64,000 nucleotides of DNA, taken from the NCBI GenBank assembly GCA_015523125.1, contig WAKX01000040.1, forward strand, positions 19,601 through 83,600, written 5' to 3'. Source of the stretch: DHVE2 group archaeon. Its GTDB lineage: Archaea > Thermoplasmatota > Thermoplasmata > Thermoplasmatales > Aciduliprofundaceae. A model generated the notes under the pieces. The model had not been told where the DNA came from, did no database searches, and saw nothing but the letters and a program-made list of their open reading frames with translations. The first letter of the stretch is position 1; every line of letters starts with the position of its first letter. Below, one piece after another: positions 10,602 through 62,388 of this stretch. Position numbers and translations under genes: made by a program.

Positions 10602-10656
10602 CTGCACACCTGCCCGGAGTATGCGCAGAATAATATAAATTGTTTTTCCCACATCC

Positions 10657-12192: not shown

Positions 12193-12240
12193 AAGAGGGG
12201 CGGGGTATAAATAAATTTCCGGAGTTTTAATCTCGCGTTT

Positions 12241-13404: not shown

Positions 13405-13506
13405 TAATTTATATTGTCGGCTTAAAATCCATATGTGTGTTGTTCATAAAAACTTTCCCGCGCGGGGCTGGGTAAATTATTTAACATCTTCCCGCCATAC
13501 TCCGCT

Positions 13507-36656: not shown

Positions 36657-37406
36657 ATGGCAGATAGCGGACGGGATAGATGTAAAACAGGCATTGCGGG
36701 CCTGGATAGCATACTCAACGGCGGCATTCCCCGGGGGAATACCATTCTGATCACCGGTTCATGCGGTACCGGCAAAACTACATTAAGTCTCGAATTTTTG
36801 GTTCACGGAGCCCTCATGGGCGAGAGGTCCATGTACATCTCCGTCACGGAAGCTCCGGAAAAATTAGTGGATAACATGATTACCTACGATTTCTTCGATA
36901 AAAAATTGATAAACGAGAAAAAGTTGATACTTGTGGATTTGCAAGAAATATACGTGAAATTAGGCTTGGAGAAACTGGAATTCACGCTGGAAGATGTGAA
37001 TATATTGGTGAGTCAAATTGTGAAAATCGTTAAAGAGTTAGGAATAAAAAGGCTGGTGATAGATTCAATAACTTCAATTTGCTATCGTCTGACTTCTAAA
37101 GAAGAAATAAGGGAATTCATTCTACATCTTGGAAAAGAGCTATCCGATTTGGGATGCACCACAATCCTCATCTCCGAGCTTTTGCACTCTTCCGAAGGCT
37201 ATTCTCAATACGGGGTGGAAGAGGCAATAGCTGATGGGATCATATTCATGGGGAACTTGGAGCGCAGGGGGGATCTGCTGAGAACGATACAAGTGATAAA
37301 AATGAGAGGAACCACGCATTCCAGAGCAAAGTATGTTCTTGATTTAACACCCATAGGAGTTCTATTGGCTCCTTTGCTCAAGGGCGGTAGCTCGGAGGTG
37401 ACATGA
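36657..37406 (+). CDS. Single-domain KaiC-like RecA-superfamily ATPase (intact P-loop)
   Basis: GIAGLDSILNGGIP + Walker A GSCGTGKT (36756-36779) + Walker B LVIDSITS + IKMRGTTH. Confidence 0.88.
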   Translation: MADSGRDRCKTGIAGLDSILNGGIPRGNTILITGSCGTGKTTLSLEFLVHGALMGERSMYISVTEAPEKLVDNMITYDFFDKKLINEKKLILVDLQEIYVKLGLEKLEFTLEDVNILVSQIVKIVKELGIKRLVIDSITSICYRLTSKEEIREFILHLGKELSDLGCTTILISELLHSSEGYSQYGVEEAIADGIIFMGNLERRGDLLRTIQVIKMRGTTHSRAKYVLDLTPIGVLLAPLLKGGSSEVT

Positions 37407-37407
37407 G

Positions 37408-37980
37408 ATGGGAGTTACAGCCAATGTTGTTGGAAAATTGGAGGAATTACCCTCCGCTTCATCCATAGCAATAAAAACGGGGGTGAATTCGTACTTCGAC
37501 GTTCTTAGAGCAATAGTGGATGTTTTTCCAGCGAGGCACGATTTATACGTGTTCTACGTATCTTCCACAATTCCTTCGAAAAATATAGAGAACCTATTCA
37601 ATCTTCTGGGAATCGAATCCAATCGTGTGTTTTTCGTGGACACAATATCCCACCTCATGAAGGAAAGCACCGAATTTTCCGATAGATTCCTCTACATCGA
37701 GAGTCCCACGATGCTAGAGTACATAATGCTAAAAATAGAGTACCTCGTGAGAAAATATACGGACAAAAAGGCAGTAGTCATTCTCGATTCCGTGAACTCC
37801 ATGTCCATATACAATGGTTCAAAAATCATGTCCGAATTTCTCCACATTCTCGTGACCTCCCTTAGAAGCTGGGACGCTTACATGATCATCCTCTCGATGA
37901 AAGAACAGAACACAAGCGAAATAGATGCGATGCTGAACATGGTATGCGACGACATATACGATGTGGAGGAGGTGGAGTAA
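37408..37980 (+). CDS. Uncharacterised protein, probable P-loop-less (inactivated) RecA/KaiC-fold domain
   Basis: 190 aa with no GxxGxGK[ST]. It retains strand-like segments in KaiC order (LYVFYVSS, VFFVD, AVVILDSVNSM, AYMIILSM). It starts 1 nt after the previous stop and ends immediately before the next ATG. Confidence 0.5.
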   Translation: MGVTANVVGKLEELPSASSIAIKTGVNSYFDVLRAIVDVFPARHDLYVFYVSSTIPSKNIENLFNLLGIESNRVFFVDTISHLMKESTEFSDRFLYIESPTMLEYIMLKIEYLVRKYTDKKAVVILDSVNSMSIYNGSKIMSEFLHILVTSLRSWDAYMIILSMKEQNTSEIDAMLNMVCDDIYDVEEVE

Positions 37981-38721
37981 ATGGCGTTCAAAACCGTATC
38001 AATTGGATTACCCCTATTAGATAAGGCGCTAATGGACGGAGTTCCCGAGGGTTACACCATTCTTCTCTCAGGCTCGCCGGGCTCCGGCACCGAGCTTTTT
38101 GCAAAGCAATTCGCGGCAGCGGGTTCAAAAGAGGAGAACGTGATGTATATCACCACAACGGAGAGGGATGAGGATATCATAACGACCATGAAGAACTTTG
38201 GCTGGGAGCCGAATATTCAGATAGTGAACGTCGGAGCCGAATATTACCACAAGGTTCTCGAGAAGGAATTGATAATAAGCAAGTACAGGGAAGAAGGAAT
38301 ACCGGTAAACGAGATATTCGCTCCGGCACGCAAGAAAAAGGAGAAGGAAATAAACTTTCTAACCATGATCACCTACGAGATTTCGAAGCTCAAACCTCCG
38401 TTCAGGATAATCATCGACTCCCTCGATTTCTTCCTAAACAATTACGACGGCCCGAAGGTGATTTCCGCCCTGAGAACCATAAAAGCTCATGCGCAGTACT
38501 ACGGCGGTGTCGTCCTCGTTACTATGATGAAAGATGTGTATGATACTCACACCCAGAGCGGCGTGGAGCAGCTGGCGGATATAATTTTAGAGATGGATAT
38601 GCTTCGAACTCCCAAAGGATTCGTGAACCACATAATAATCAAGAAGGTCAGAAATCATCCAGAGAAAGCGGGAATATTCAAGTACCAGATTTACGAAAAA
38701 GGTTTGAAAATCGTGGGGTAA
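37981..38721 (+). CDS. KaiC-like RecA-superfamily protein with a degenerate Walker A (no lysine)
   Basis: GLPLLDKALMDGVPEG + GSPGSGTE (38071-38094), where K-T/S is replaced by T-E. The Walker-B-like segment is IIIDSLDF, and the C-terminus reads IKKVRNH. Confidence 0.8.
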   Translation: MAFKTVSIGLPLLDKALMDGVPEGYTILLSGSPGSGTELFAKQFAAAGSKEENVMYITTTERDEDIITTMKNFGWEPNIQIVNVGAEYYHKVLEKELIISKYREEGIPVNEIFAPARKKKEKEINFLTMITYEISKLKPPFRIIIDSLDFFLNNYDGPKVISALRTIKAHAQYYGGVVLVTMMKDVYDTHTQSGVEQLADIILEMDMLRTPKGFVNHIIIKKVRNHPEKAGIFKYQIYEKGLKIVG

Positions 38722-38722
38722 G

Positions 38723-39808
38723 ATGGAGAGATACGGAGTTGCAAACCTTCCGCTGCATCCGGGTCATGCACCCAGATGGTTGTTCGATAGAATGGTTAAG
38801 CTCTCGGGAGAGATTGTGAAGGTAATCGCTTTAGAATTCGGACCTGACGAAGTATTGAGAAGATTCGCAGACCCTTTCTGGTTTCAGGCGTTCTCATGCG
38901 TAATCGGGTTTGACTGGCATTCCTCAGGAACGACAACGGTGACCCTCGGCTCACTCAAACAAAGCTTAGGGGAAGAACACGGAATCCTGCTGGCCGGAGG
39001 CAAGGGAAAAGCATCTAAAAAAACGCCGGAGGAAATTGAAAAAATCGGCGATGCTTTCAACCTTTCTTCTTCCAAGGTAGAGAGATTAAAGTACACGAGC
39101 AAAATCACGGCCAAGGTGGACAACACTGTTCTCCAAGATGGCTATAACCTCTATCATCATGTGATTATGGTCTCCGAGTCCGGAAATTGGGTGGTGATTC
39201 AGCAGGGGATGAATCCCCAGAAGAAATATGCTCGAAGGTACCACTGGATTTACGGAATAAATAGCTATGTGAATGAGCCCCATTCGGGAATAATAGGGGA
39301 CAGAAAAGAGAAAAGGGTTCTGGACCTCACTTCCGAAAAAAGCCGCGATGCAAGGAAAATATCTGTAGATCTGGCGAAGGAAAATCCAAAGAAAATAAGA
39401 AATATGGTTGTGAACATCAAAGACAGGAAGCAGATGAGCTTAGATGATTTTTCCGGATACAAGGTGCTCCACATGCCATGGAACATAAACTGGAACGCGT
39501 TGTTCGAAGCTTATGAAATACAGCCGAGAGATTACGAAGAGCTCATCTCGATTAGGGGAATAGGGCCATCAACGGTGCGAGCTTTAGCTTACATCTCCGA
39601 GGTCATATACGGAACGGAGATATCGTGGAAAGACCCTGTAAAATATTCGTTTGCGCTCGGCGGGAAGGACGGCGTGCCCAAGCCCGTCGATCGTGAGGCT
39701 TACGACAAAAGCATAGAAATATTGCAGCTGAGCATAGAAGAGGCAAAATTGGGAAATAAGGAGAAAATCGAGATGCTGAAAAGATTGAGAAGGTACGTGC
39801 CCGACTAA
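38723..39808 (+). CDS. DUF763-family protein with a C-terminal helix-hairpin-helix motif
   Basis: 361 aa. The N-terminus LPLHPGHAPRWLF...FDWHSSGTTTV is recognised as DUF763 from memory. The HhH-like segment IRGIGPSTVRALA is at 39551-39589. Confidence 0.7.
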   Translation: MERYGVANLPLHPGHAPRWLFDRMVKLSGEIVKVIALEFGPDEVLRRFADPFWFQAFSCVIGFDWHSSGTTTVTLGSLKQSLGEEHGILLAGGKGKASKKTPEEIEKIGDAFNLSSSKVERLKYTSKITAKVDNTVLQDGYNLYHHVIMVSESGNWVVIQQGMNPQKKYARRYHWIYGINSYVNEPHSGIIGDRKEKRVLDLTSEKSRDARKISVDLAKENPKKIRNMVVNIKDRKQMSLDDFSGYKVLHMPWNINWNALFEAYEIQPRDYEELISIRGIGPSTVRALAYISEVIYGTEISWKDPVKYSFALGGKDGVPKPVDREAYDKSIEILQLSIEEAKLGNKEKIEMLKRLRRYVPD

Positions 39809-42800
39809 TCCCCAAGTACCTCTTCTAAATTAACTACCTTAGCATTCTTCTCTCGACCCAAAATATGCACCACGTGGCTTTTAGTCAGGCTTCTAAAGAT
39901 TATAATCGTCGAAATGAATGTGAATATCAACCCGATGGCAACTACCTCTAATATATCAGAGATTGTAGGAGTTATAATTAGCCGATGCCCGAAAGCCGTG
40001 AGGAGATTCAAGTCATCGATGAAGAGTACCAAAAAATACCCTCCAATTATTCCCAACACAACAGGGACTACTACGTACAAAGATGCTTCTTTCATGTACA
40101 TTGAGAATATCTGCCTGTTGCTGGCGCCTATTGCCCTGAGAATTCCCACGTTGGACATCTTCATGGATTTTATTGTGGTGGAGTAAATTCCGAAGAACAG
40201 GAGGATAAAGGTGACTGCAATGAGTGCAGCGATAACCAAAATGAAATTTCCCTCTGATATCTGGAATCCCTTGTAAATCACTCCCTTGCTCTCGGTGAAC
40301 TTCAAATCCTTTGAATATTTGAGAACCAAATCCGTTGGAAGCTTTTCTACTATGCTCTTCTCCACATCTAAATTAAGAGTTTGATTCTCCACGGTTACAT
40401 GGTGTACACCTTCGTCCAGATATGGGAGATAAATGTATATGCTTTTTCTCTCGTAGGGTTTGAGGAAGATCTGGGAAGAATAATAAATACTTCCGTCCAA
40501 CTTAAGCGTTAAATTGTAATAACCTTCGACGTTGCTGTTCACCATATCCACCACCACTATGCCCCGCTCCCTTGTGGTTATTGTAGAATTAAGCAGGGAT
40601 GCTTTCACTTCAACCTTCCTCACGCTCTCCACAAAGACCAATGCATTGATAGAAGCGTTGTTATTGTTCACATCCTCTGCCCAAACCGTTATATTCTGCC
40701 ACCCACTCGGCAGCATGGGTTGTGTAATTTGAATATGAGAAGCATTCTCGGATAACACCACCGTGTCGTTGCAGGTCACCCACATCTTCTTTACGGCCAC
40801 ATTATCAAAGCCAGAGTATGTGAGGCTCGTGGTGAGATTGATTGCCCCGTAGGAAGGACCTTTTATAACAGGTGGAACTCTTTCTCCCTTGTTGTCGATT
40901 ATTAGCGTAAACGTTTGATTGTTCTCGTTGCCGGAGGAATCTCGAATAAGCAAATTTATAGGATATATACCATCTTGAAGATACCAAACCCTCGTAGCGT
41001 TCTCAAATTCGGTATTTATTAAGAGCGTAGAGTTTGTGGAGTTGTAATAGTGACCCATGAAAAATGCGCTCATAAAAGAAACCCTAACATTATCCCAAGC
41101 AGTTATTTTTGTTGTGTTACCTCCCCACTCCGTGGCCTCTTTCACCAAAAGCTCCGGTTTAATATCATCTAAGATTAGCAGCTTCACCGTTTCATTTTTC
41201 ACATTTCCATTCACATCTCGAGCGTAAATACTCACTGATGAATAACCACATGGAAGAAGGGAAGCGGGGAAAGTGAGATTATCTCCGGTGGAATTGTATA
41301 TTAGCTTCCCATCGTAAAGAACCCACATATCGCGGATTCCAACGTTGTCGAATGCCCTCACACTTATATTCCCGGAAGCATTGTATCCCCCCGTGACCCA
41401 TGGCAAAAATTCGGGGGGATTTTTCTCACCGGTGTTATTTATATTCAAAATAAACACTGACGAATTTGAATTCCCGTTTATATCCCAAGCTGTAACTTCC
41501 ATAGTATAGTTCCCCGGCGGTTCGAAATAAATACCGTTATCATTGGAGAATTGGGTCTTAACCACAACCCGCTTAGAGCCGTTGAAATATTTTCCGAACA
41601 CATGTACCGATACTTTCTGAACCTTCACATCGTCCGTGGCGCTGACAACCGTTGAATTCCCACCCCATATCTCCAAGGAGCTCACCGAGATACTAGGTGG
41701 AGTTGTGTCCGTGTAATTTTTCACAATTACCGTGGAAAAATAGCCGTAATTGAAGTTCAAATCAACCGCTTCTATTTCCAACTTATGCGTTCCATTTGCT
41801 AAATCTCCGCTTGTTAGATTCAAAATACTCCCTGTAGACTCTTTTATCAGATTCGGCCCTTCGTAACATGATATCTTCCAAAGTCCAACGTTGTCGAATG
41901 CTTTGAATTCCACATAACCAAAGGTTAAATTGTAGTAACTCGGGCCAACGATAACCGGAGGATTCCTCTCGTTGTTGTTATTTATGGTTATCGTGAAATT
42001 TGTCTCGTTCTTATTTCCAGATGTGTCATATGCAACCACATGAACCTCATAAGAACCCTGAGGAACGTATTCAACCTCACCGCCGATTCTGAACATAGTG
42101 CTTATGTAAACAGAATCACCCGTTGCGTTAAAATAATGCCCGTAAAAATAGGCAGATATGTTTGCAACTTCCACATTATCCGTAGCTCTCACCAAAGTTC
42201 TGTTTCCGCCCCATATAGTAATATTGCTCACAACTATCTCCGGTTTGATTATGTCTTCTCGGAGAATAACATGGCATGTGATGTTCAAATGTGCGCTCCT
42301 GTTCCAGTAATCCTGGAAAGATAGTTGTAACTCGAATCGAACGCTGTTGACTCCTATGGTCAAATTGTATGTATAATTATCCACGCTCGGATCAAAACTT
42401 TGGTTTGGAAAAACGATGAAATTATGAGAATTCACCTCGTATTCTATTTCCCGTATTGGCACAGGGTCCCGGAGCTCAAAGCTCAGGTTCTCCCCGTAAA
42501 CCACCGACGAGCCATTAGTAACGGGAGAAATTATTAGTGGAGTGTAGTTTTGAACCACGTGAATCGTGAATTTTCCCTCGCCCATGTAATTACCCTTCAG
42601 AACTCTAACCGCCAGAATATGATTTCCTTCCATCTCATCAGGAAGTTGCAGATACGATTTTTCAACGTAGCTCCCGTTGTCGAGGGCCACATAAGGGGTT
42701 CCAGAGGTTAAAATCCGTATATCTCCGCCCTTCTCAACGTATATGGTTCCGTTTAAAGGCTCGGGATATATGGGGGCTATGCTATCCAGCTCCACCCTGC

Positions 42801-43938
42801 CGTAAACGCTCACGTTGAACCTTTTCTCCAAATAACCAAATCCTCTGAAATCAAGAGTATAATTCCCTGTGATGGGAAACACAACGCTCACGTTTCCCCT
42901 CACCTGATAGCTTTTATAATAATTGTTGGGCCCGCTCACGTTGAGGATTCCAGAATCAATAGTTTCATTGTTCACGCTGGTGAATATGTACTCCGTGGGT
43001 GTATTTACGTATGCGAAGCTGGATCCCTGCACGAACACGGGCTTGTCCATCACAGCCACCTGAGTGTAGCAGGTGTAATAGAAAATATCATTCTTGACGA
43101 TGACAGTGAGATTATATTTCCCGCTTTTCTCCGCTAAAAATGACATGTTGATTTTTCTTTCATTCTCGACGTAAATTGTGCTGTTCTTGTATTTGCCCTG
43201 AAAAGACACGCTTACCTCGGCGCTGCCCCCCTTCGAGCCCATGTTTTTGATTGTCACCGTGAAGTTCAGCCTATCGCCAACGTATATTTGTGAAGTTGCG
43301 TTCAGCTCCGCGGTGAATTTTGGATACTCCTCGCTCATGAGCTGATTCACTTTCTCCACATCATCTGTTTTAACCCTTATTATCGATACCTGCCCACTCT
43401 TTATGCCTGCGAGTCTTCTTGCAGTTGGAAGTGAGACCATTATCTCATCATCCGCAGGATCGCCCGTTCTATATATTCCCGTTACATTCACAACCGCAAT
43501 GCTTGAGGTGAATGAGCCGTAAAGGGTTAGCTTGTCTCCAACTTTGATACCTAAAACCTTCGCAACGTCGGCGCCGGCCATGGCCCCGTCCGTCGTGGTT
43601 GGCATTTCTCCAGCGAGCATTGTTCCATTCTCCAACTTAAAAAATTTTTCGAATATGACCCCGCGAATCGTAACCGGCCTGTCTTTCAAAACGGTGAACA
43701 CGAAAATCTCCGGGCTAACAGCTTGAATATAACTCATGTTTTCTAGCCCGTAAGCGATTCCTATGTTCAAATTACTCCTTATGGGATTTTTGTCCGTTGA
43801 AGACGTGAGCACATATACCCCGTTACCGCCCATCATCTTCTCGGGCATGTTGTAAATTGAAATTAGGGAGATATACATCGATGCGAACAGCAGGAAAAGG
43901 ATGAATATGGGAATGATTATTTTCTTGCCGAGAATCAC
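39805..43938 (-). CDS. FtsX/MacB-type ABC permease with a giant (~1200 aa) extracytoplasmic domain of CARDB/Ig-like modules
   Basis: 1377 aa. TM1 is at residues ~6-28. The MacB-PCD-like start is VAKVLGIKVGDKLTL. A long sequon-rich ectodomain follows, then 3 C-terminal TM helices with the FtsX motif ILRAIGASNRQIF. The GTG start overlaps the upstream stop (GTGA). Confidence 0.85.
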   Translation of the reverse strand: MILGKKIIIPIFILFLLFASMYISLISIYNMPEKMMGGNGVYVLTSSTDKNPIRSNLNIGIAYGLENMSYIQAVSPEIFVFTVLKDRPVTIRGVIFEKFFKLENGTMLAGEMPTTTDGAMAGADVAKVLGIKVGDKLTLYGSFTSSIAVVNVTGIYRTGDPADDEIMVSLPTARRLAGIKSGQVSIIRVKTDDVEKVNQLMSEEYPKFTAELNATSQIYVGDRLNFTVTIKNMGSKGGSAEVSVSFQGKYKNSTIYVENERKINMSFLAEKSGKYNLTVIVKNDIFYYTCYTQVAVMDKPVFVQGSSFAYVNTPTEYIFTSVNNETIDSGILNVSGPNNYYKSYQVRGNVSVVFPITGNYTLDFRGFGYLEKRFNVSVYGRVELDSIAPIYPEPLNGTIYVEKGGDIRILTSGTPYVALDNGSYVEKSYLQLPDEMEGNHILAVRVLKGNYMGEGKFTIHVVQNYTPLIISPVTNGSSVVYGENLSFELRDPVPIREIEYEVNSHNFIVFPNQSFDPSVDNYTYNLTIGVNSVRFELQLSFQDYWNRSAHLNITCHVILREDIIKPEIVVSNITIWGGNRTLVRATDNVEVANISAYFYGHYFNATGDSVYISTMFRIGGEVEYVPQGSYEVHVVAYDTSGNKNETNFTITINNNNERNPPVIVGPSYYNLTFGYVEFKAFDNVGLWKISCYEGPNLIKESTGSILNLTSGDLANGTHKLEIEAVDLNFNYGYFSTVIVKNYTDTTPPSISVSSLEIWGGNSTVVSATDDVKVQKVSVHVFGKYFNGSKRVVVKTQFSNDNGIYFEPPGNYTMEVTAWDINGNSNSSVFILNINNTGEKNPPEFLPWVTGGYNASGNISVRAFDNVGIRDMWVLYDGKLIYNSTGDNLTFPASLLPCGYSSVSIYARDVNGNVKNETVKLLILDDIKPELLVKEATEWGGNTTKITAWDNVRVSFMSAFFMGHYYNSTNSTLLINTEFENATRVWYLQDGIYPINLLIRDSSGNENNQTFTLIIDNKGERVPPVIKGPSYGAINLTTSLTYSGFDNVAVKKMWVTCNDTVVLSENASHIQITQPMLPSGWQNITVWAEDVNNNNASINALVFVESVRKVEVKASLLNSTITTRERGIVVVDMVNSNVEGYYNLTLKLDGSIYYSSQIFLKPYERKSIYIYLPYLDEGVHHVTVENQTLNLDVEKSIVEKLPTDLVLKYSKDLKFTESKGVIYKGFQISEGNFILVIAALIAVTFILLFFGIYSTTIKSMKMSNVGILRAIGASNRQIFSMYMKEASLYVVVPVVLGIIGGYFLVLFIDDLNLLTAFGHRLIITPTISDILEVVAIGLIFTFISTIIIFRSLTKSHVVHILGREKNAKVVNLEEVLGD
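40630..42255 (-). repeat. Three tandem, divergent ~180-aa coding repeats inside the giant permease ectodomain
   Basis: The units start at DIIKPEIVVSNITIWGGNRTLVRATDNVEV (42255), DTTPPSISVSSLEIWGGNSTVVSATDDVKV (41709) and DDIKPELLVKEATEWGGNTTKITAWDNVRV (41169). Each continues with ...ERNPPVIVGPSY / EKNPPEF / ERVPPVIKGPSY and ..AFDNVG... Confidence 0.85.
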
Positions 43939-44933: not shown

Positions 44934-44943
44934 TTAGGCTCGC

Positions 44944-44957
44944 AAAAGATATATACC
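44944..44957. promoter_or_regulatory. Single near-palindromic TATA element in the 44-bp divergent spacer between the permease and ATPase genes
   Basis: The sequence aaaagatatatacc has its centre about 27 nt from the GTG at 44978 (consistent with a leaderless ATPase mRNA) and about 18 nt from the ATG at 44933. Confidence 0.4.
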
Positions 44958-44977
44958 CTTATTAACTTTATGTCGTT

Positions 44978-45631
44978 GTGAGCCAAATCGAAGTTAAGAA
45001 CGTTTCCAAGAGCTACGGAAAGAAAAAAGTCCTAGATTCTGTGAGTTTCAACGTTGATAAGGGAGAAATTTTGCTCATCGAAGGGCGTTCGGGAATTGGA
45101 AAGACAACCCTTCTAAACATTATGGCCGGAATAGATCATCCAGATGAAGGAACCGTAATAATAGAAGGGGAAGATATATTCAAGATGAGCGAGGACAAAA
45201 GGGCGAAATTCAGGCTCGAAAAGATAGGCATAATTTTCCAGCAGATGAATCTTATAGAGGATTTGAACGTTATGGAGAACATAGCCCTTCCCTTGAAACT
45301 CGCCGGCAAGAAGTGGAAAGAAAGGGTTGATGAGCTCTTGAAATACATGAAGATTGAGAATCTGAAGTACGAGATGCCAACCTCGCTGAGCGGCGGAGAG
45401 ATGCAACGCTGCGCGATAGCGAGGGCCATAGCAAACGAACCGGAAATTCTGATTGCGGACGAGCCCACATCCAATTTGGACGATGAGAACACGAAGAACA
45501 TAAGCGAATTGTTCACGAGGATAAACAAAGAGATGGGTACGACGATAATCATCGCCACCCACGACCCGAGAATAAATCATATCGCTTCTGAAATAATAAA
45601 CCTTGCGCGGGAGGAGAAAAATGAGGGATAA
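44978..45631 (+). CDS. ABC transporter ATP-binding protein, MacB/LolD type
   Basis: Walker A GRSGIGKTT, Q-loop IFQQ, signature LSGGEMQR, Walker B ILIADEPT, H-loop ATH. GTG start. Confidence 0.92.
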   Translation: MSQIEVKNVSKSYGKKKVLDSVSFNVDKGEILLIEGRSGIGKTTLLNIMAGIDHPDEGTVIIEGEDIFKMSEDKRAKFRLEKIGIIFQQMNLIEDLNVMENIALPLKLAGKKWKERVDELLKYMKIENLKYEMPTSLSGGEMQRCAIARAIANEPEILIADEPTSNLDDENTKNISELFTRINKEMGTTIIIATHDPRINHIASEIINLAREEKNEG

Positions 45632-46343
45632 AGACCTCGTTGCCCTGCTGACCTTAGTCGGATTCATCCTGTATTTCTACCCGTATCCCATCGTTAAATT
45701 CATCGGAACTTCAATCCTTTTATTCTTCTCCTCTGGATTCTTCCTTCTCAAAATATTCTACAGAGATATGAAATTGGAAGAGCTCATTTTGCTATCCTTT
45801 GGCGTATCCGTAGCGATTTCCGGGGCCCTTGCACTCATTTTAGCAGTATTTTCTCTCCTGACCCCGTTTGCCATGTTCATCGGAATCGCGGCGATTTCCA
45901 TCCTCGGATATTTCTTATCCTCTTCGCTGGAGATTAAAAAGCCGAAGATTGAGAAGCCCGATAAGTTCACCGCGGTGATGCTGGCCCTGATGCTAATCGT
46001 AATAGGTGTGTGGGTGAGCGTGGAATCACAGACTTCTTACTACAAAGAGATAGACATAGCCATAAATCACTGGCCCAAAAATGCAACGGTCAATTCCTCT
46101 CTCGGATTCGAGATATACGTGAAAAACCAGAATTACGGAAATGCGGATTGCAGGGTCGTTTTCACCTTAAATAAAAAGCAGATGGAGACGAGAAATTTCA
46201 CCCTGAACAGCGGAGATGAAAAAATTTTGATGTTCCAAGCGAGGAGCAATCTCACGGGCAAAAATCTCGCCTCATTCGATCTCTATGTGAATGGAAATTT
46301 TTACACCAACGTGCACGTTTATTTCGATTTGCGGAGCTCGTGA
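45621..46343 (+). CDS. Membrane protein, DUF1616-like N-terminal TM region + CARDB-like extracellular domain
   Basis: 4 TM helices (FLLKIFYRDMKLEELILLSFGVSVAISG resembles DUF1616), then the beta-rich segment FEIYVKNQNYGNADCRVVFTLN. The ORF opens at 45603, overlapping the ATPase. Confidence 0.55.
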   Translation: MRDKDLVALLTLVGFILYFYPYPIVKFIGTSILLFFSSGFFLLKIFYRDMKLEELILLSFGVSVAISGALALILAVFSLLTPFAMFIGIAAISILGYFLSSSLEIKKPKIEKPDKFTAVMLALMLIVIGVWVSVESQTSYYKEIDIAINHWPKNATVNSSLGFEIYVKNQNYGNADCRVVFTLNKKQMETRNFTLNSGDEKILMFQARSNLTGKNLASFDLYVNGNFYTNVHVYFDLRSS

Positions 46344-54824: not shown

Positions 54825-57800
54825 TTATTTCTTTTCCTTTTTCTCTCCCTTGGATTTCTTCTTGAATTTCTTCTTCTCGCCCTTCTTCTGCATGTATCTC
54901 CAGCCAATGTATCCGCCTATTGCAATTATGGCAATTGAACCGCCGATTATGGCCGGCATCTTCCAGGGCGCCTGTTCAACTTTCACTGTCATTGTCTTGG
55001 AGTTGTCGCTTGTGTAGCTCGGAGGCTCGGTTGCGCATCCAACTTTCACTTTTATTGTGTAGTTCCCGGGTGCAGGTGGGGTCCAATACATGGTCTGCAC
55101 TGCATAAGTTCCATTCTTGAGGTTGTGGAAAGTCTGATTAGCAGCAACCTTGCCATTCACATATATTGCTATCCAATAAGTGGTTGCTACGGTATCGCCG
55201 TTGTTGGAAACATTCACTACGAAGCTCAGCTTATTTCCCTCAACTCTATCTCCCTTTATATCCACGCTGTTCAGGGTTAGATCCGGTCTTACGGGTGTAA
55301 CCCTGAGGGTCTTGTTAACCACATTGTAATTTCCTGCTCCATCTGTAACATTGAGTATTATGTAGTATGTGCCGTACTTGTGGAATTTAAGTGTTACATT
55401 TCCAGAGGCAAAGCTGCCATTCACAATATCGTATATCCCATCGGTGACATTGATTACCTTGTAATTTTCGTCCTTGATCGTCCAGTTATAGCTGGCAATC
55501 GTTCCATTCTCGGGATCATAGCTACCGGTTGCATCCAAAGTCACGTTCTCCTCTTCTTTCACTTCGTTCACATTCTTGCCGTTTACGGTGAAATTCAACT
55601 TAACTACCGGCTTTGTGATATCTTTAACTTCAACGGGCAAGGAGATTATAATAGTGTTATTCACAGAATCTGTGAGAGTCACATTCACGTAATAATTGCC
55701 TTTTCTGGAAGGTACGTCGAACGCGTAGCTTCTGTTGTCACCGGTGCTCTTATTTCCGTTGAAGTTCCACTCCACAATCACAGGCAGATTTGTCTTGTTC
55801 ACCGTATCATAGGTATCGTACGAAGAGGAGGCATCATATACTATCTCCTGCGATTCATTAATAACCAGCTTTGGTCCAATCTTTACCAGATAGGTTGTGC
55901 CGTTGCGCCACGCGTGGCCCGTGGTTCCGGTTACATTGTAATCAATACGTGCAATAGAAGAGTTGTCAGTCCAGAGCTTAGCCAGAACCTTGCCAGAGGG
56001 GTCTGTGATTGTTATGTTCACAGTTGGCCAAATATTGTCCGCAAGAAGCGTCACATTGGTTTCATTTGTGTTTCCACCAACATCTGCAACTTTGATTGTG
56101 AGGATGTGCTTCCCTCTTGCGAGGCTTCTGGTTATGTTGTAATGAGCAACACCGCTGCTCACCTGCGAGCCATCGACCAACCAGGTATAAGTAGTATTAT
56201 CCGCATCCATTTTATCACGAACAACGTCATACACCATCTTGGAAGCGTTGAACCACACGGCCTTGTATGCGGGAATCACAACGGTATAGTTATCTGCGGA
56301 CTGATTCACAATGTGATTCACGTTGGTCATATTGGCCCAGCCTATTACAAAGTGCTCGTTATCCAGAGTTATCGCCGGGCTCTTTCTCTCCTTAAGGTCT
56401 ATCTGAACCACGTTCGTCTTTATTTCACTCACAGATATTTGATTCACATAGCCAGAAACAGTGGCTCCCTGAACATCGTTGCTCCTCTCCAAGTAGGAGG
56501 GAATGTTCAACTTATAAGCATACACAATAGACGCACCTTCGATGTGATCCATTTTTCCGTAGAGAGCAACATTCACCACACCATCTTCGAGCATTTTGCT
56601 CTTCTTTACATCCCCGTTATGATAATAAGCGTTTATCTGCAAGGTGTATCTCTCATTTGCAGAATCAACTGGAGTTACCTGGGAGTTCACATGATCAAGA
56701 GAGTATATCTCATTATCCAGAGTGATTATGTCCGTGGTGTAATCATAGTATTTGTTCTTTAGATAATTTACCAAATCAGTATTTGACCATCCCAACAGCT
56801 TCATCTGATAGTAAAGTATGCCTGTATCGCTATACGGAAGCCCGTAAATCACGGATTTGTTAGATATGTCGATTGTGTATGAGACATTCACCCATGTCAA
56901 ATCAGATGAAAGAGAAATGTCAGCATTCACGTTGTTTGTGACCTTTGTCACGGCTGCGCTGATCTCGCTTGTAGTTGCGTCCTGCTCCACTATGCTGTAT
57001 CCATCCGCAGTAATAACGAGCTTGTAATTCAGAGAGGGCAGGTAGAAGCTGAAAGCTCCGCCGTTGAATGTGAGCACGTTCCAAACATCACCGGTTGTTT
57101 TATTTAATACCACTATGTGTGTAGTAGTATTCACTATCTTGCTGGAATCGCGGACAGTGCCGAGAATCCTGTAGTAGTTATCTAAGTCGATTGAAACATT
57201 CTTGTGGGTATCACTGGCTGCAATCTCCACATCCTTGTAGTAATCCTTCTCAACACCGCCTTCGTTGTATGCAACCTTCACCGTAACTGTTCCCTGAGTC
57301 ACATTGAAGGTCTGATTTCCAAATACGTTCATCTCGGCGAACTGACAGCCGTCGAAGTACATGCTTACATCGGCAACTATGGGCAAACCGCCCTTCGTTA
57401 TGGTCAAATTAAGCACGTGAGATAGAGGATATCTCTCCACGGTTAAGCTGGTGAACGCACTTCCATCAATCTTTTTAAGCCCGCTCTGGTCCAAGCGAAT
57501 CACAGCGGAAGCGGACTTGTAAACGTACATTCCCTTGCTAACCGCATTTACCTTCACAACATAATTCCCATAAACCACGTTTGTGAATTCAACTATTCCA
57601 TTAGATGTTGAATTGCTCACATCTATAAAGTGTCCATCCATATCATACAGATATGCGGAAACATCGCTAAGATAATAGCTATCTCCACTCTCAACATCAT
57701 CATACAGGAGTACGAAATCGATTGTCCCTTTCTGCGGCTCCAATGCGTGAACGGTCCCTGCAACCACGATAGCGCTAAATAGCACTATCAGAATCGCTGC

Positions 57801-57836
57801 CAACACTTCCGCCTTTTTACTTATTTTTGCGCTCAT
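54825..57836 (-). CDS. Large secreted, N-glycosylation-sequon-rich, C-terminally anchored surface protein with PKD/Ig-like and CARDB domains (S-layer-type candidate)
   Basis: Signal peptide MSAKISKKAEVLAAILIVLFSAIVVAGTVHA. By my count there are roughly forty N-x-S/T sequons. The CARDB-like segment DLTLNSVDIKGD...VVNVSNNGDT...PGNYTIKVKV lies at ~55040-55290. A TM helix and a K-rich tail follow. A GGAGGG SD (57845-57850) and a TATA-like tatttaaac (~57882-57890) lie upstream. The ORF extends to 57911. Confidence 0.8.
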   Translation of the reverse strand: MSAKISKKAEVLAAILIVLFSAIVVAGTVHALEPQKGTIDFVLLYDDVESGDSYYLSDVSAYLYDMDGHFIDVSNSTSNGIVEFTNVVYGNYVVKVNAVSKGMYVYKSASAVIRLDQSGLKKIDGSAFTSLTVERYPLSHVLNLTITKGGLPIVADVSMYFDGCQFAEMNVFGNQTFNVTQGTVTVKVAYNEGGVEKDYYKDVEIAASDTHKNVSIDLDNYYRILGTVRDSSKIVNTTTHIVVLNKTTGDVWNVLTFNGGAFSFYLPSLNYKLVITADGYSIVEQDATTSEISAAVTKVTNNVNADISLSSDLTWVNVSYTIDISNKSVIYGLPYSDTGILYYQMKLLGWSNTDLVNYLKNKYYDYTTDIITLDNEIYSLDHVNSQVTPVDSANERYTLQINAYYHNGDVKKSKMLEDGVVNVALYGKMDHIEGASIVYAYKLNIPSYLERSNDVQGATVSGYVNQISVSEIKTNVVQIDLKERKSPAITLDNEHFVIGWANMTNVNHIVNQSADNYTVVIPAYKAVWFNASKMVYDVVRDKMDADNTTYTWLVDGSQVSSGVAHYNITRSLARGKHILTIKVADVGGNTNETNVTLLADNIWPTVNITITDPSGKVLAKLWTDNSSIARIDYNVTGTTGHAWRNGTTYLVKIGPKLVINESQEIVYDASSSYDTYDTVNKTNLPVIVEWNFNGNKSTGDNRSYAFDVPSRKGNYYVNVTLTDSVNNTIIISLPVEVKDITKPVVKLNFTVNGKNVNEVKEEENVTLDATGSYDPENGTIASYNWTIKDENYKVINVTDGIYDIVNGSFASGNVTLKFHKYGTYYIILNVTDGAGNYNVVNKTLRVTPVRPDLTLNSVDIKGDRVEGNKLSFVVNVSNNGDTVATTYWIAIYVNGKVAANQTFHNLKNGTYAVQTMYWTPPAPGNYTIKVKVGCATEPPSYTSDNSKTMTVKVEQAPWKMPAIIGGSIAIIAIGGYIGWRYMQKKGEKKKFKKKSKGEKKEKK

Positions 57837-57897
57837 GGTATATTCCCTCCATATTGTGCTGGTGAGGGAAAACACTTTCCGTTTAAATACTTTTCTT

Positions 57898-58566
57898 TTA
57901 CTGCGATTCATAAATTTTGCCGTCTTCTATCTTCAGAACGCGGGTTGCATAATCTAAGAGACGCAAATCATGGGTGGCGATAATCACCGTCTTTCCCTCG
58001 TCGTTCAGCTTTTTGAACAATTTAATTATGCTCAATCCGGTTTCCGTATCCAATTCACCCGTGGGTTCGTCCGCGAGGATGATTGGAGGATCTAATGCAA
58101 GAGCAACAGCAATTGCGACCCTCTGCTGCTCGCCACCGCTCATCTCATCGGGATAATGCTTCTCCCTGTGCTCCATACCCACCAACTTTAAAAGTTCTTT
58201 GGCCCTTTCCTTTTTATTTTCCACCTTCCCGGAGAATTGCATTGGGAGCATGACATTTTCCAACGCATTAAGAGTAGGAACCAAATTGAAAAACTGGAAA
58301 ACAACCCCAACCCTGTTTCTCCTGTAATCCGTTAATTCCTTATCGTTGAAAAGCGATATATTTTCCCCGTTAACAACTATTTTTCCGGCCGTTGGCCTAT
58401 CGATGCCCCCCAATAGATGCAGGAAGGTGGTTTTCCCCGAGCCGCTGGGCCCCACCAACATTACCATTTCCCCGTCTTCAATCTTGAGCGATACGTCCCT
58501 TATAGCTATTACCTCTATTTTTCCTCTTCTGTAGACTTTTATCAGGTGCTCGATTTCTATCATCAC
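57898..58566 (-). CDS. ABC transporter ATP-binding protein, MacB/LolD type
   Basis: GPSGSGKTT, VFQFFNL, MSGGEQQR, ILADEPT and ATHD. There is an ATGA overlap with the upstream permease. Confidence 0.93.
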   Translation of the reverse strand: MMIEIEHLIKVYRRGKIEVIAIRDVSLKIEDGEMVMLVGPSGSGKTTFLHLLGGIDRPTAGKIVVNGENISLFNDKELTDYRRNRVGVVFQFFNLVPTLNALENVMLPMQFSGKVENKKERAKELLKLVGMEHREKHYPDEMSGGEQQRVAIAVALALDPPIILADEPTGELDTETGLSIIKLFKKLNDEGKTVIIATHDLRLLDYATRVLKIEDGKIYESQ

Positions 58567-61073
58567 ATCTCACCTCCGAGTGAGCGAAGAACCTCGCTCT
58601 CTTTAACCCTAGAGAACATAAAAGAAATTATGTACTGGGAGAGCAGGAACATGAGTATCATAACAGAGGTAACCACCGCGAAATTGTAGCCGAAGGTGAA
58701 AAATGGGGGCATGCGCATCATGGTCTCTTCCATGGTAACCCACGTGTACGATAGGGCGAGGCCCACCGATAAACCGATTATAGAGGAGAGAATAATAATG
58801 GTCACTCCTTCAACCATTAAAATCGCCGTTACCTGTTTTCTTCTAGCCCCACGCACTTTGTAAAGAGAAATTTCCCCGCGCCTGTTGAAATAGAGGGAGT
58901 ATTGGATTATGAATATGGTTGCACTTCCTAAAAGAATCATGAAAGCTTCAGCCGTGAGTATGAAATAATGTGCGTAATTCTCCCCACCGCTCTTCCTTTC
59001 CTCATATCGAACGTTCTTCTCATTCAACTCTTTCTTCAGAGCCTCATAATTTTTCGCCTTCAGAATTAGAGATGTGGCATTTTTCACATTTACATTTTTA
59101 TTAATTAATATGGTGTCATCATCCGGAAGTCCGGGGATGGAATACATCACCGCACCCACTATGTATTTTTTAGTTGAGGTGTGGCTCATTCCGCTATAGT
59201 TGTGGGTGGTTATTGTTACATAAATCGGATCTCCAGGTTTGAGGGAATACCGGTTCGCCAAGTACTCCGTTATGGCAACCCTGTCATTTCTCAACGAGCC
59301 CTTCTCGATGAAATAATCCAAATGGTAAACGCTCTTCGTGTAGTTCTCAAAATTCACATAAATCACTTCGGAAGCTTCATTGAATAGCAACGAATCATAA
59401 TTTACGGAGAGCCAGCAGTGCGCACTCTGATTCTTCGAATTAGAGATTTCTTTGATGACCTCGAGGTTTACCGGGTCGTTTCCCTGCTCTAAATCCACGC
59501 GGAAATCTCCGCCTACAAACATCACATGCTGAATATCGTTCATCATGCCCTGATTGTCGTTCATAGACGACATGAATGAAGAATACGTGAGAATGAATGC
59601 CAAAATGAACGCTATATATGCTATATTCTTCGGGTTTCTACTCATACCCTTCTTCGCAAGTGCACCAGAAGTTCCAGTGAGTTTAGATATACCATTAGCC
59701 ATTATTTGATAAAATTTCTGAGTGCCTAAAGTCAGGAGCCGGGCCATGGAGAGGGGCAACACGATCAAAATAACGGGGAACAGGAATCCGAAAATCCCAA
59801 TTCCAATTATGGCAAGTATCATAATTAAATTGAAGCCTTGCTGGTAAGAGAAACTGTGGGCAAGGTAAAGCACGATGATAATGTATCCCCAGAAGATACT
59901 GGATAATACCATGTCCCTAGTGGCCGAGTACTCCACCTCCTTAAATCTCTGAGAATAATGGGTTATCAGCTCTAAAATCGGGGTGGTGTTTATCTTCTTC
60001 CATGGCTTGTAAAGCGCCATAAAAAACAGGAAAAACGAGGTAATTATCGAAGCAATAACATAACTCCAGCCCCAGTCCAATGTAAAGAATGGAATTTGGA
60101 ATATGGAAATATTCATAGCGTAGGCGACAAATTCCCCCAATAGATAGCCAACAACTCCGCCTATCAATGAATAAATCACCGATTCGTAAAACAGGAGCTT
60201 AAACCTCTGAAAACCCGTGGCGCCCCTTATTTTAAGCACCCCGAACTCCCTTCTCCTCTCCGTGAGCTCGATTTCGATGGCAACCTTGGAGAGATAAGAG
60301 CCCATCACAATTATGGGCAGTGATATTACCAGGGCACCAATCATACTCATCATATCCGCGCTATACTGAAAATTTGTATTTACGTTCGAGGAGCTGCTGT
60401 ACTGGGAGACCACGTAATATATTTCATTCTGAATTTCGCTTAACTTTTTGTTAATCTCGCTCACACTTGAAGACTCTAAAAGATATTCCGCATCGATTTT
60501 CACCCAGAAAAATGCCATGGTGGATGGAAAAACTTTTTTCATGGTGGATAAAGTAGTATAGGAATCGACGTAATAATCCCTATTAAAAGAGGTGAACATG
60601 CCAACGATCCTGAAACTTACATTCTTCACTCCACTGCCCCCTGGCGCGGTGCAGTTCACCACCGAGCCAACTGAGAGATTTTCCCCCATTGCAAAACCAT
60701 AATCCACGGCTATTTCATAATCGCTCTTGGGCAATCTACCTTCTTTCAGAACCAAAGTGTTGTTTGCGTTGGGCCAGTACCCAATCACCATTTGCCCCGT
60801 ATAATTTTCCGTGTTTGCCTCCACTATAGTGGATATATACCCAGTAACCCCCTCCACGTGTTTCACATTCTTTATCGAATCGAGTAATTTCTCGTAGTTA
60901 GAAGGATTTATATTTGCGGTGACGGCGATTTGGTACGGACTCTCTTCGAGGCTCTCATAAAGGGATAATCGGCTGAAATTGTTGCCGAGGGTGAACATGG
61001 AAAATATTATCGCCACAGCTAAAATCACACCCATGGTGGTGGTTGCCATCCTCCTCTTCGAGATTACGCGCAT
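58563..61073 (-). CDS. Double-module FtsX-family ABC permease (YbbP-like, ~10 TM)
   Basis: 836 aa with two FtsX modules (VLKIRGATGFQRFKL..., LYKVRGARRKQVTAIL...), each preceded by an extracytoplasmic MacB-PCD-like loop. Confidence 0.88.
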   Translation of the reverse strand: MRVISKRRMATTTMGVILAVAIIFSMFTLGNNFSRLSLYESLEESPYQIAVTANINPSNYEKLLDSIKNVKHVEGVTGYISTIVEANTENYTGQMVIGYWPNANNTLVLKEGRLPKSDYEIAVDYGFAMGENLSVGSVVNCTAPGGSGVKNVSFRIVGMFTSFNRDYYVDSYTTLSTMKKVFPSTMAFFWVKIDAEYLLESSSVSEINKKLSEIQNEIYYVVSQYSSSSNVNTNFQYSADMMSMIGALVISLPIIVMGSYLSKVAIEIELTERRREFGVLKIRGATGFQRFKLLFYESVIYSLIGGVVGYLLGEFVAYAMNISIFQIPFFTLDWGWSYVIASIITSFFLFFMALYKPWKKINTTPILELITHYSQRFKEVEYSATRDMVLSSIFWGYIIIVLYLAHSFSYQQGFNLIMILAIIGIGIFGFLFPVILIVLPLSMARLLTLGTQKFYQIMANGISKLTGTSGALAKKGMSRNPKNIAYIAFILAFILTYSSFMSSMNDNQGMMNDIQHVMFVGGDFRVDLEQGNDPVNLEVIKEISNSKNQSAHCWLSVNYDSLLFNEASEVIYVNFENYTKSVYHLDYFIEKGSLRNDRVAITEYLANRYSLKPGDPIYVTITTHNYSGMSHTSTKKYIVGAVMYSIPGLPDDDTILINKNVNVKNATSLILKAKNYEALKKELNEKNVRYEERKSGGENYAHYFILTAEAFMILLGSATIFIIQYSLYFNRRGEISLYKVRGARRKQVTAILMVEGVTIIILSSIIGLSVGLALSYTWVTMEETMMRMPPFFTFGYNFAVVTSVMILMFLLSQYIISFMFSRVKESEVLRSLGGEM

Positions 61074-61224: not shown

Positions 61225-62388
61225 ATGTTTTCTATGGGTGATTCAGAAATGTGGATCCCGTATGTGTTCTGGCCAACATTCGTGGCTTCGGTTATAAGTA
61301 TATTTTTAGTTGTATACGTGCTGAAAGCTGATATAAGAAAGGCCGGGAACATGGCCGCATTTTTTATGTTTCTATCAGTTCTAATATGGAGCATCGGTGA
61401 GCTTATAGAGCGTATTGCAGGACCACCAAATAATGATATTTATTTAGCATACTTTGGTGCGAGATTTCTATTTTTTGGTATCGCTATCCTCTCTGCTGCA
61501 TTTATCCACTTTGCCATAGATTACCCTTACAGGATAAAAATAAGCAAATCTTTAAGAAAAATCATTATTTATGCTGTTTACGGATTTTCAGCAATGGGCA
61601 TACTTTTGGATATCTTAGATAATTTTTTGGGAAAGTTGGTAATTGCGAGTGAATCCCCGTATTCGGCCTTCGGCCAAACTGTATGGGGACTTGATCCCGG
61701 ATTAATTTACAAAATATATATAACGTGGCTGTTCTTAGCAGGACTCATTCTTTTGGCTGCACTCCTGTGGAAGCTAAGAAACGTGAAAATGAAAATTGTG
61801 AGGATGCAGATATGGCTTACATTCACCGGCCTTATTATAGCATACGTGCTCATAACTTTAACAGGTTTGGTGCCTGTTCTTCTCGGGATACAGATGTACC
61901 CTCTTACAACGGTATCATTCTCGATATTTGGATTATTTACAATATACACAATCTATCGCTACAGACTGTTCATTGTGGTTCCAGCTACCGAGGAAATCGA
62001 ACTCCATGAGGAGATGCCGGAATCTGGTGTTTACAAATTGCCTAAAGATACAGCATTTCAGAGGTTTGCTAATTTAGCAAGATCGGGTTATAAAGCAATT
62101 GGATTTATAAGCCAAAACATAGCGGAATTCAAAGGAAAATATGGATTGAAGGCTACACCAATCTTCGAGATATCTGAGAATCCTGGAAAGGACCGTTTGA
62201 ATCCTGTGATTAAGGAGCAGAGGGAGATGATTCCCTTCATAATATCTACATTCATAGATGAAGTGGAAAATCCTGTTATTTTGATTGATTTTAGTGCAAA
62301 ACATATAGACGAGAATCTGAGAAAAAAAATAATGGAGGAAATAGAATCCATTGTGCAAGAAAATTGTGTGTTAATTGTTGCAGAGTAA
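61225..62388 (+). CDS. 7-TM sensor-like membrane domain fused to a DUF835-like (KaiC/RecA-derived, P-loop-less) cytoplasmic domain
   Basis: About 7 hydrophobic helices over the first ~250 aa. The C-terminal segment GYKAIGFISQN...ATPIFEISE...PVILIDFSAKHI resembles DUF835, from memory. No Walker A is present. Confidence 0.55.
   Translation: MFSMGDSEMWIPYVFWPTFVASVISIFLVVYVLKADIRKAGNMAAFFMFLSVLIWSIGELIERIAGPPNNDIYLAYFGARFLFFGIAILSAAFIHFAIDYPYRIKISKSLRKIIIYAVYGFSAMGILLDILDNFLGKLVIASESPYSAFGQTVWGLDPGLIYKIYITWLFLAGLILLAALLWKLRNVKMKIVRMQIWLTFTGLIIAYVLITLTGLVPVLLGIQMYPLTTVSFSIFGLFTIYTIYRYRLFIVVPATEEIELHEEMPESGVYKLPKDTAFQRFANLARSGYKAIGFISQNIAEFKGKYGLKATPIFEISENPGKDRLNPVIKEQREMIPFIISTFIDEVENPVILIDFSAKHIDENLRKKIMEEIESIVQENCVLIVAE

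Follow-up and report, generated by a model that had tools for sequence, protein, structure and literature searches.

Why should a permease of the FtsX family carry an extracytoplasmic loop of about 1205 amino acids (aa)? The question is raised by the gene for a 1377-aa protein (hereafter, the giant permease) in a 64,000-nucleotide (nt) stretch of DNA from a DHVE2 group archaeon of the Thermoplasmatota (GenBank assembly GCA_015523125.1, contig WAKX01000040.1, positions 19,601 to 83,600; hereafter, the window). We find that the loop is a normal LolC-like core of about 180 aa that is interrupted, at one point of its putative Porter subdomain, by a discrete insertion of 987 aa that comprises 11 immunoglobulin (Ig)-like domains, and that the gene belongs to a conserved module together with genes for a second, small permease, an ATPase and an accessory membrane protein. 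With regard to function, we consider it about evenly balanced whether the giant permease is a subunit of a lineage-specific ATP-binding cassette (ABC) complex of Type VII (the MacB/LolCDE/FtsEX class) in DHVE2 archaea, in which the Ig loop would be a built-in extracytoplasmic partner, such that the ATPase would act through the loop on the cell envelope rather than power a solute pump.

The open reading frame (ORF) is intact throughout its length (Table 1). Hydropathy delineates four transmembrane (TM) helices, at residues 7–25, 1233–1251, 1289–1307 and 1320–1338, and the Pfam FtsX domain (PF02687) is recognized at residues 1235–1354, where it scores 48 bits (cut-off, 25.5); the translation contains the motif ILRAIGASNRQIF. 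At the level of Pfam, the protein is a permease of the FtsX family, with four TM helices, both termini in the cytoplasm and a large domain between TM1 and TM2, and the secondary structure in the AlphaFold2 (AF2) model of a 677-aa relative has the same layout. This is the MacB/LolC topology, TM1 followed by an outer domain and three C-terminal helices, that the original prediction, made from the letters of the window, had proposed; its loop of about 1200 residues (nt 43850–40250) is close to the measured extent, from residue ~29 to 1232 (nt 43854–40243), and its description of the loop as packed with N-x-S/T sequons is borne out by 56 sequons in the ectodomain, compared to 16.4 ± 3.7 in composition-preserving shuffles. 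There are no sequons in the TM and cytoplasmic part of the protein, and the clusters of Lys and Arg in the translation are located at the N-terminus, in the loop between TM2 and TM3 and in the C-terminal tail, so that the large domain lies outside the cell, not in the cytoplasm.

The outer domain starts and ends as an ordinary one. Positions 108–243 of the TIGR02212 (lolCE) profile match giant residues 87–208, and a 434-aa relative encoded in a Thermoplasmatota metagenome-assembled genome (MAG; locus L018) aligns to giant residues 1–198 and 1198–1326, with a Gly-rich linker of about 30 aa in the place of the insert. Searched against the PDB sequences, a profile of the whole family retrieved PKD and SraP-like repeats only; the core became visible only once the insert was removed, that is, with a profile of 16 family members minus residues 210–1193 combined with the natural 434-aa short form, which produced one continuous alignment to LolF residues 85–393 (E = 3e-6) and also matched LolC (1e-6) and MacB (4e-5). 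The insert has the N-terminal half of a single LolC-like fold on one side and the C-terminal half on the other, and the alignment of the insert-deleted profile places the insertion point after the helix DDVEKVNQLMSEEY-PKF and before EKLPTDLVLKY. According to PMC5985334, the Porter subdomain of MacB consists of two beta-alpha-beta motifs that flank the Sabre subdomain, has a direct connection to both stalk helices and is regarded as belonging to the machinery of mechanotransmission. For the 677-aa relative, the AF2 model, in which the core region is well predicted, has its elements in a compatible order: beta-alpha-beta, a mixed alpha/beta part that resembles the Sabre, beta-alpha, and Ig domains; after these come a short helix, a strand, the long helix that makes up the stalk and TM2, the coupling helix and, finally, TM3 and TM4. 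The insertion point appears to correspond to the connection between the helix and the last strand in the second beta-alpha-beta motif of the Porter, with the strand assignment provisional; the segment that follows the insert (residues 1196–1232) is provisionally equated with the last Porter strand of LolC and the first part of the stalk helix that continues into TM2.

The insert itself is a chain of Ig-like domains. In the AF2 model of giant residues 1–1200 (overall predicted local distance difference test score, pLDDT, 81.5), it is all-beta, with scores of about 80–90, and consists of 11 beta-sandwich domains, six of which are supplied by three tandem repeats that share 29–39% identity in a BLASTP self-comparison; hhalign yields a probability of 100% between the repeats, 94–97% between their a and b domain types, and 86% (E = 5e-6) between the first (D1) and the last (D11) domains of the insert, which are homologous. 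Among PDB profiles, the repeats match the PKD domains of KIAA0319L (E = 3e-4) and the cadherin-like modules of SraP (E = 9e-3), and their invariant Asp/Asn motifs (DNV, DxxGN and the NNxGEKxPP linkers) suggest Ca-stabilized junctions. Several Ig-like Pfam families exceed their gathering scores, namely, Big_13 (31.5 vs 27), Big_3_3 (29.6 vs 27), PKD_4 (29.2 vs 27) and He_PIG (29 vs 24), whereas CARDB (PF07705) stays below its own (15.2 vs 22.7 bits), so that 'CARDB-like' denotes a resemblance only, for domains D1 and D11. Hence, of the CARDB-like and Ig-like modules originally proposed, the Ig-like ones hold, the CARDB-like ones hold as a sub-threshold resemblance only, and the 'inflated' loop, although its length is real, is not uniformly expanded. 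Foldseek comparison of the two AF2 models (giant residues 1–1200 and the 677-aa relative) to the PDB returned only generic multi-Ig arrays at TM-scores of 0.1–0.2, among them the GhpA neck, DSCAM, alpha-2-macroglobulin/C3 and mastigoneme, and no three-dimensional match to the MacB fold. We rejected an alpha-2-macroglobulin or complement MG identity of the insert, given TM-scores of 0.09–0.16 and the lack of any A2M, thioester or bait-region match in Pfam. Precomputed Pfam lists show a faint match to PF27332 (TP_0781) for several giants (lists of P0001, P0003, P0017 and P0021).

A search of 5.8 billion proteins identified 20 full-length homologues of the giant permease (38–57% identity, 1364–1409 aa), with 41–61 sequons each; the sole name that any of them bears is 'ABC transporter permease'. 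Scanning one genome per prokaryotic species, we detected 16 loci, all in MAGs assigned to the DHVE2 group, Aciduliprofundum sp. or Thermoplasmata, and all carriers found are MAGs. An exhaustive HMMER search, in which the C-terminal 188 aa were compared to 1.84 billion representatives, brought up only 16 proteins below 1e-10. Among the best 150 matches of this search, the FtsX domain of every other single-FtsX protein begins at about residue 200–250 or, in proteins of 660–675 aa, at about 470–510; the latter, judged from length only, would be MacB-type permeases to which a nucleotide-binding domain (NBD) is fused. The proteins longer than 1400 aa outside the giant family contain 3–6 FtsX stretches and thus are long for a reason other than one giant loop. 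Within the family, the size of the insert is graded: at the same site, there are no inserted domains in the 434-aa form, about three in the 677-aa form, about seven in the forms of 1020 and 1036 aa, and 11 in those of 1364–1409 aa. The 677-, 1020- and 1036-aa intermediates share the N-terminal core of the giant, and the number of domains is constant throughout the giant clade.

The insert is under purifying selection that, over short distances, is as strong as that on the core. Compared to a 94%-identical orthologue, from which it differs by no indels, the giant permease shows a ratio of nonsynonymous to synonymous substitution rates (dN/dS) of 0.079 overall, 0.089 in the insert, 0.054–0.065 in the core and 0.01 in the last domain of the insert. 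Across the 20 homologues, mean identity to the window protein is highest in the post-insert segment (79%), followed by the core (62%) and the insert domains (35–53%).

The module keeps one gene order wherever the locus is long enough to show it (13 loci): the small FtsX and giant FtsX genes follow one another in one direction, and the genes for the ATPase and a 240-aa protein, in this order, run in the other. Identity to the window ranges over these loci from 60 to 96% for the ATPase, 47 to 96% for the small FtsX protein, 44 to 93% for the 240-aa protein and 38 to 94% for the giant. The small permease is a distant paralogue of the core of the giant (29% identity over 94 aa), and its gene, which overlaps that of the giant by the four nt GTGA, adjoins the latter in every locus that reaches far enough upstream; we presume that the two form a heterodimer. 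The ATPase has an intact set of motifs in its translation (Walker A GRSGIGKTT, signature LSGGE, Walker B ILIADEPT and H-loop ATHD), and its best NCBIfam match is FtsE, at 208.5 bits against a cut-off of 264.85, followed by L_ocin_972_ABC (TIGR03608, 199.6 bits), a lactococcin-972-type ATPase of putative bacteriocin-export ABC systems, and LolD; DarD (darobactin export), DevA and the MacB NBD are further top matches. The GTGA overlap and a MacB/LolD-type ATPase across a 44-bp spacer had been noted in the original prediction, and both are found as described, but the module has more parts than it recognized: the accessory 240-aa protein, the conserved region of the putative promoters and, in deeper lineages, a 518-aa protein (see below). 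The accessory gene overlaps that of the ATPase by 11 nt and is found in all of the 13 loci; its family, no wider than that of the giant, numbers 27 proteins of 238–246 aa, one of which is named DUF1616, a domain for which the literature searched offers only an N-glycosylated Haloferax membrane protein. The C-terminal domain of the accessory protein contains four sequons and bears a weak resemblance to D1 of the insert (hhalign probability 55%, E = 1e-4).

Between the two divergent gene pairs, the motifs TAAAGTTAATA and GTATATAT(C/T)TTTT are kept within 41–49 nt in 14 related loci (L003, L005–L017), and the spacer is conserved although the flanking proteins have diverged to 38–60% identity. The two boxes are centred ~26 nt upstream of the start of the ATPase gene and ~29 nt upstream of that of the small FtsX gene, that is, each ahead of the gene it would serve, which suggests putative back-to-back promoters composed of B recognition element (BRE) and TATA boxes that would yield leaderless, co-regulated mRNAs. 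We considered, as further parts of the module, the flanking genes for GT2 glycosyltransferases, KaiC-like ATPases, DUF763 and PolD but did not count them because the linkage is gone in more distant loci. In the window, an archaeal PolD gene adjoins the module, in keeping with the assignment of the DNA to the DHVE2 group. A block of genes (36657–38721, + strand) comprises two KaiC-like ATPase genes (249 and 246 aa) flanking a DUF7090 gene (190 aa) and is followed by DUF763 (361 aa), the stop codon of which overlaps that of the giant convergently (39805–39808); this block adjoins the giant gene in the closer relatives only.

Table 1 Features of the giant permease, its module and related genes (window coordinates, except where a locus label precedes them).
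Feature	Coordinates	Strand	Basis or remark
Giant FtsX-family permease, 1377 aa	39805..43938	-	GTG start, stop 39805-39807; translation, partial Pfam and TIGR02212 matches, 20 homologues
TM1, residues 7-25	43864..43920	-	Hydropathy; AF2 helix 5-36; N-terminus inside (K5, K6)
LolC-like extracytoplasmic core (Porter/Sabre-type), residues 29-208	43315..43854	-	TIGR02212, insert-deleted profile, AF2 of 677-aa relative
Insert, residues 209-1195, 987 aa, 11 beta-sandwich (Ig-like) domains	40354..43314	-	AF2; boundaries from alignment to 434-aa short form
Three tandem ~181-aa repeats, residues 562-742, 744-922, 924-1104	40627..42255	-	Each composed of two PKD/cadherin-like Ig domains
Post-insert segment and stalk, residues 1196-1232	40243..40353	-	Conservation; aligns to LolF/LolC directly before TM2 and to short form 246-280
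TM2-TM4, residues 1233-1338, FtsX domain with cytoplasmic coupling-helix region ILRAIGASNRQIF	39925..40242	-	PF02687 1.6e-12, hydropathy, weak LolC/LolF/YtrF/MacB matches
Small FtsX-family permease, 332 aa	43935..44933	-	Pfam FtsX 7.8e-13 (49 bits); YtrF 2.9e-8, LolF and LolC matches
Putative divergent promoter spacer, 44 nt, between ATPase and small FtsX genes	44934..44977		BRE/TATA-like boxes TAAAGTTAATA and GTATATATCTTTT
ABC ATPase, 217 aa, FtsE/LolD/MacB-NBD clade	44978..45631	+	Pfam ABC_tran 4e-35; motifs intact
Accessory membrane protein, 240 aa, five TM helices and extracellular beta-sandwich domain	45621..46343	+	Translation, hydropathy
Second FtsX operon: 836-aa permease, two FtsX domains and MacB_PCD	61073-58563	-	
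Second FtsX operon: 222-aa ABC ATPase	58566-57898	-	
Second FtsX operon: 1028-aa surface glycoprotein	57911-54825	-	CarboxypepD_reg, PKD and CARDB (2e-11)
518-563-aa membrane protein, linked copies	L012:12224-13780; L011:~12137-13687; L018:4869-6560; L019:3362-4972; L020:2339-2836		
518-563-aa family, copy from the metagenome of the window	L021:8001-9557		Separate scaffold, unlinked to module

Taken by its gene content, the complex would comprise the 217-aa ATPase in two copies, together with one small and one giant FtsX protein and an accessory protein with five TM helices. Because both ends of the Ig chain appear to be clamped to the Porter, which in MacB-type proteins is connected to both stalk helices, the parts that transmit force in the Type VII class by moving with the ATP cycle, the chain would form a closed loop that stands on a moving element. 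Folded as a hairpin, the 11 domains would extend over about 20 nm, as estimated from the general size of Ig domains, which is of the order of the archaeal pseudo-periplasm. The loop might then be a built-in version of the separate partners of other Type VII systems (EnvC, MacA, LolA, TesA), such that ATP binding and hydrolysis would move or re-orient the Ig scaffold, and the scaffold would exert its effect on a target in the cell envelope. That ATP drives a machine at the surface instead of powering a solute pump is plausible in that it fits the biology of Type VII systems (PMC5985334), the purifying selection on the insert and the fixed number of domains. A second operon of the window (see below), in which genes for an FtsX permease and an ATPase are coupled to one for a separate Ig-array glycoprotein, likewise speaks for Ig arrays as partners of FtsX modules.

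Several points weigh against this interpretation. No result here ties the Ig loop specifically to the surface layer (S-layer). The short and intermediate forms presumably work with less or no loop, so that the core function may not depend on it. The heterodimer is presumed from gene coupling alone, and the two permeases align over TM2–TM3 only. In the AF2 model of the 677-aa relative, the post-insert segment is a helix of low confidence, which makes uncertain the exact Porter element that is interrupted; and, given that Foldseek returned generic Ig arrays only, the MacB fold has the backing of sequence profiles and of secondary structure but not of a three-dimensional match. Finally, the linkage of the genes in a second FtsX operon of the window (see below) was not recovered elsewhere: a scan of the metagenome yielded nothing, and the fetched loci contain no homologues.

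The main rival to an actuated loop is an ordinary extractor or efflux pump of the MacB/Lol/YbbP type that removes hydrophobic, lipid-anchored or antimicrobial molecules from the outer leaflet. The Ig loop would then be passive and stay outside the ATP cycle, serving as a glycosylated spacer, a shield or an anchor by which the complex is positioned in or under the surface layer. We regard it as somewhat unlikely, but serious. That the 434-, 677- and ~1030-aa relatives have the same core implies that the machinery works with little or no insert; over long distances, the insert evolves faster (35–53% identity against 53–79% for the core); and generic Ig arrays are all that Foldseek has to offer. 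A passive appendage is, however, harder to reconcile with an insert that seems to reside within the Porter, beside the most conserved segment of the protein, instead of at a free terminus, or with a domain number that is fixed across the whole giant clade, or with the dN/dS of 0.09 for the insert and 0.01 for its last domain.

A more specific form of the actuated loop, which we hold to be improbable, would make it an ATP-actuated surface appendage: hydrolysis would, via the stalk helices and the Porter, swing or tension a glycosylated Ig loop of 20–40 nm, and the insert would be the fused equivalent of the separate Ig array that is encoded in the second FtsX operon. The genes of this operon (54825–61073) are chained by overlaps of 4 and 14 nt; the 1028-aa product of one of them has an N-terminal TM or signal segment, a C-terminal TM anchor, a Lys-rich tail and 41 sequons. 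By its domain content, the operon looks like a 'split' counterpart of the giant permease, that is, an FtsX module and an Ig-array glycoprotein encoded by separate, coupled genes. No homology is detectable between the two Ig arrays. Divergent from the operon is a gene for a 387-aa protein (61225–62388, + strand) that matches HisKA_7TM (2.9e-18), with no kinase domain among its Pfam matches.

Doubtful, in our assessment, is an adhesin or receptor, in which the Ig array would bind a mineral, a polysaccharide, a cell or a virus, and the ABC part would sense or reset this binding, through BceAB-like signaling or ATP-driven release. The resemblance of the repeats to PKD and cadherin-like adhesin modules (KIAA0319L, SraP) speaks for such a role, as would the conserved Asp/Asn motifs, if these are indeed those typical of Ca-stabilized adhesin rods, but there is no kinase or regulator conserved beside the module, the number of repeats is invariant, unlike in typical adhesins, and the tethering of both chain ends limits the reach of the array.

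A fourth possibility involves a further gene of the deeper lineages. In five of these, among them the lineages of the 434-, 677- and 1036-aa forms and two loci of the giant form, the gene for a polytopic membrane protein of 518–563 aa overlaps the long FtsX gene at the 3' end of the latter. This protein has ~12 TM helices, a C-terminal outer domain of ~115 aa and two invariant motifs, PYNxD, located in the first loop, and HH. Together, the ABC core and the 518-aa protein could extract or process a lipid-linked glycan or a glycolipid, with the Ig loop as a guide. The recurrence of the linkage in five lineages, the short form included, and the presence of a copy of the family in the metagenome of the window, on another scaffold, are compatible with a machine of this kind, but we deem it very unlikely: in the clade of the window itself, the gene is unlinked and located beside the genes for a lamin-tail-domain protein and a conserved 415-aa protein, and the family has no Pfam match in 16 members and no match among PDB sequences. 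An affinity with GT-C glycosyltransferases, conjectured from a PYNxDA first-loop motif and the ~12 TM helices, is unsupported and was not used. An 828-aa ORF in L012 was identified as MutS and is irrelevant.

A mis-assembly or frameshift that fused a surface protein to an FtsX gene is refuted by the occurrence of the identical giant ORF in two independent assemblies (ENA, on a 138-kb scaffold, and Logan, made from a sequencing run), the 20 full-length homologues, the indel-free orthologue at low dN/dS and the halves of a LolC-like fold on both sides of the insert. Neither did we adopt the possibility that the giant permease is the S-layer protein itself, given that it is encoded as a stoichiometric subunit in an ABC operon; the literature searched has nothing on a surface-layer protein of Aciduliprofundum. 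Elsewhere in the window, there are two adjacent genes for transporters of the major facilitator superfamily (523 and 511 aa; 9081–12192, - strand).

Nowhere is mechanical work by a cytoplasmic ATPase outside the membrane better understood than in the Type VII ABC systems, all characterized members of which are, to our knowledge, bacterial and employ separate partners. The family described here amounts to a natural experiment, where the same core comes with 0, ~3, ~7 or 11 Ig domains at one site of the putative Porter. If the loop is actuated by the ATPase, as we propose, it would show how mechanotransmission is coupled to a long extracellular scaffold and would point to a new envelope process in vent Thermoplasmatota. 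If the more specific appendage is real, it would represent a new archaeal way of doing mechanical work on the envelope, for example, in surface-layer remodeling at sites of growth or division, vesicle release or control of attachment, and there might be a wider archaeal class of machines made of FtsX and an Ig array. If the loop is passive, the family would still be a clear example, and one that can be dated, of domains accreting within a loop of a membrane protein, and the giant permease would likely be an abundant N-glycoprotein marker for the surfaces of DHVE2 cells.

In the literature searched, we found nothing on giant-loop or Ig-domain-bearing FtsX permeases, archaeal or other, nothing on fusions of CARDB and FtsX, nothing on archaeal Type VII ABC systems and no giant-loop permease already characterized as an ordinary transporter. 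Very long FtsX-family proteins are known among the ABC permeases of Mollicutes. Those FtsX proteins of 1400–2800 aa that the exhaustive search brought up owe their length to several permease modules rather than to one giant loop. Within the window, the second FtsX operon resembles the giant's in that an FtsX permease and an ATPase are tied to a long, sequon-rich CARDB/PKD Ig-like surface protein, but its Ig array forms a protein of its own (1028 aa, anchored at the C-terminus), and the permease is a fused chain of two FtsX domains.

Among characterized systems, MacB is the holotype of the Type VII ABC transporters, from which the mechanotransmission concept derives (PMC5985334). The giant permease shares with it the four-TM topology and, putatively, a Porter that is connected to both stalk helices, and the two are linked by the profile match given above. 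MacB, however, is a homodimer with a fused N-terminal NBD that works with a MacA hexamer and TolC, whereas the DHVE2 module has a separate NBD, a presumed heterodimer and no adaptor or duct. In FtsEX, with EnvC, PcsB or RipC, and in YbbAP-TesA, the Type VII ATPase drives a conformational change in an extracytoplasmic partner and no solute is transported. FtsE is the best NCBIfam match of the DHVE2 ATPase, yet its score is below the cut-off, and FtsX_Gneg (TIGR00439) gives E = 0.076 for the small FtsX protein and no match for the giant. The partner in FtsEX and YbbAP-TesA is a separate protein, whereas the candidate partner here is covalently within the permease, and no hydrolase is encoded near the module.

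Both the core of the giant and its small partner find their top sequence and profile matches in LolCDE, the lipoprotein extractor of E. coli, and its homodimeric variant LolF. As here, LolCDE combines two paralogous 4-TM FtsX-type permeases with one separate ATPase gene, and an extracytoplasmic domain, in the giant putatively of the Porter/Sabre type, lies between TM1 and TM2. The differences are that, in the DHVE2 module, one subunit carries the 987-aa Ig insert and an accessory protein with five TM helices is added, and that the giant scores 43.5 bits against a cut-off of 362.45 for TIGR02212 and 21.3 against 473 for LolC (NF008076). Unlike the hosts of LolCDE, archaea of the DHVE2 group have no outer membrane. 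The module is related in sequence to LolCDE/LolF, MacB and YtrF and would work in a like manner. Because the equivalog cut-offs for LolC/LolE and FtsE/FtsX are failed and the host is an archaeon without an outer membrane, the module should not be filed as either Lol or FtsEX. What sets it apart from these systems, the giant-loop architecture, is a robust and unusual feature that is graded in evolution, and it suggests that the mechanotransmission exemplified by MacB could be extended in a way that is open to test.

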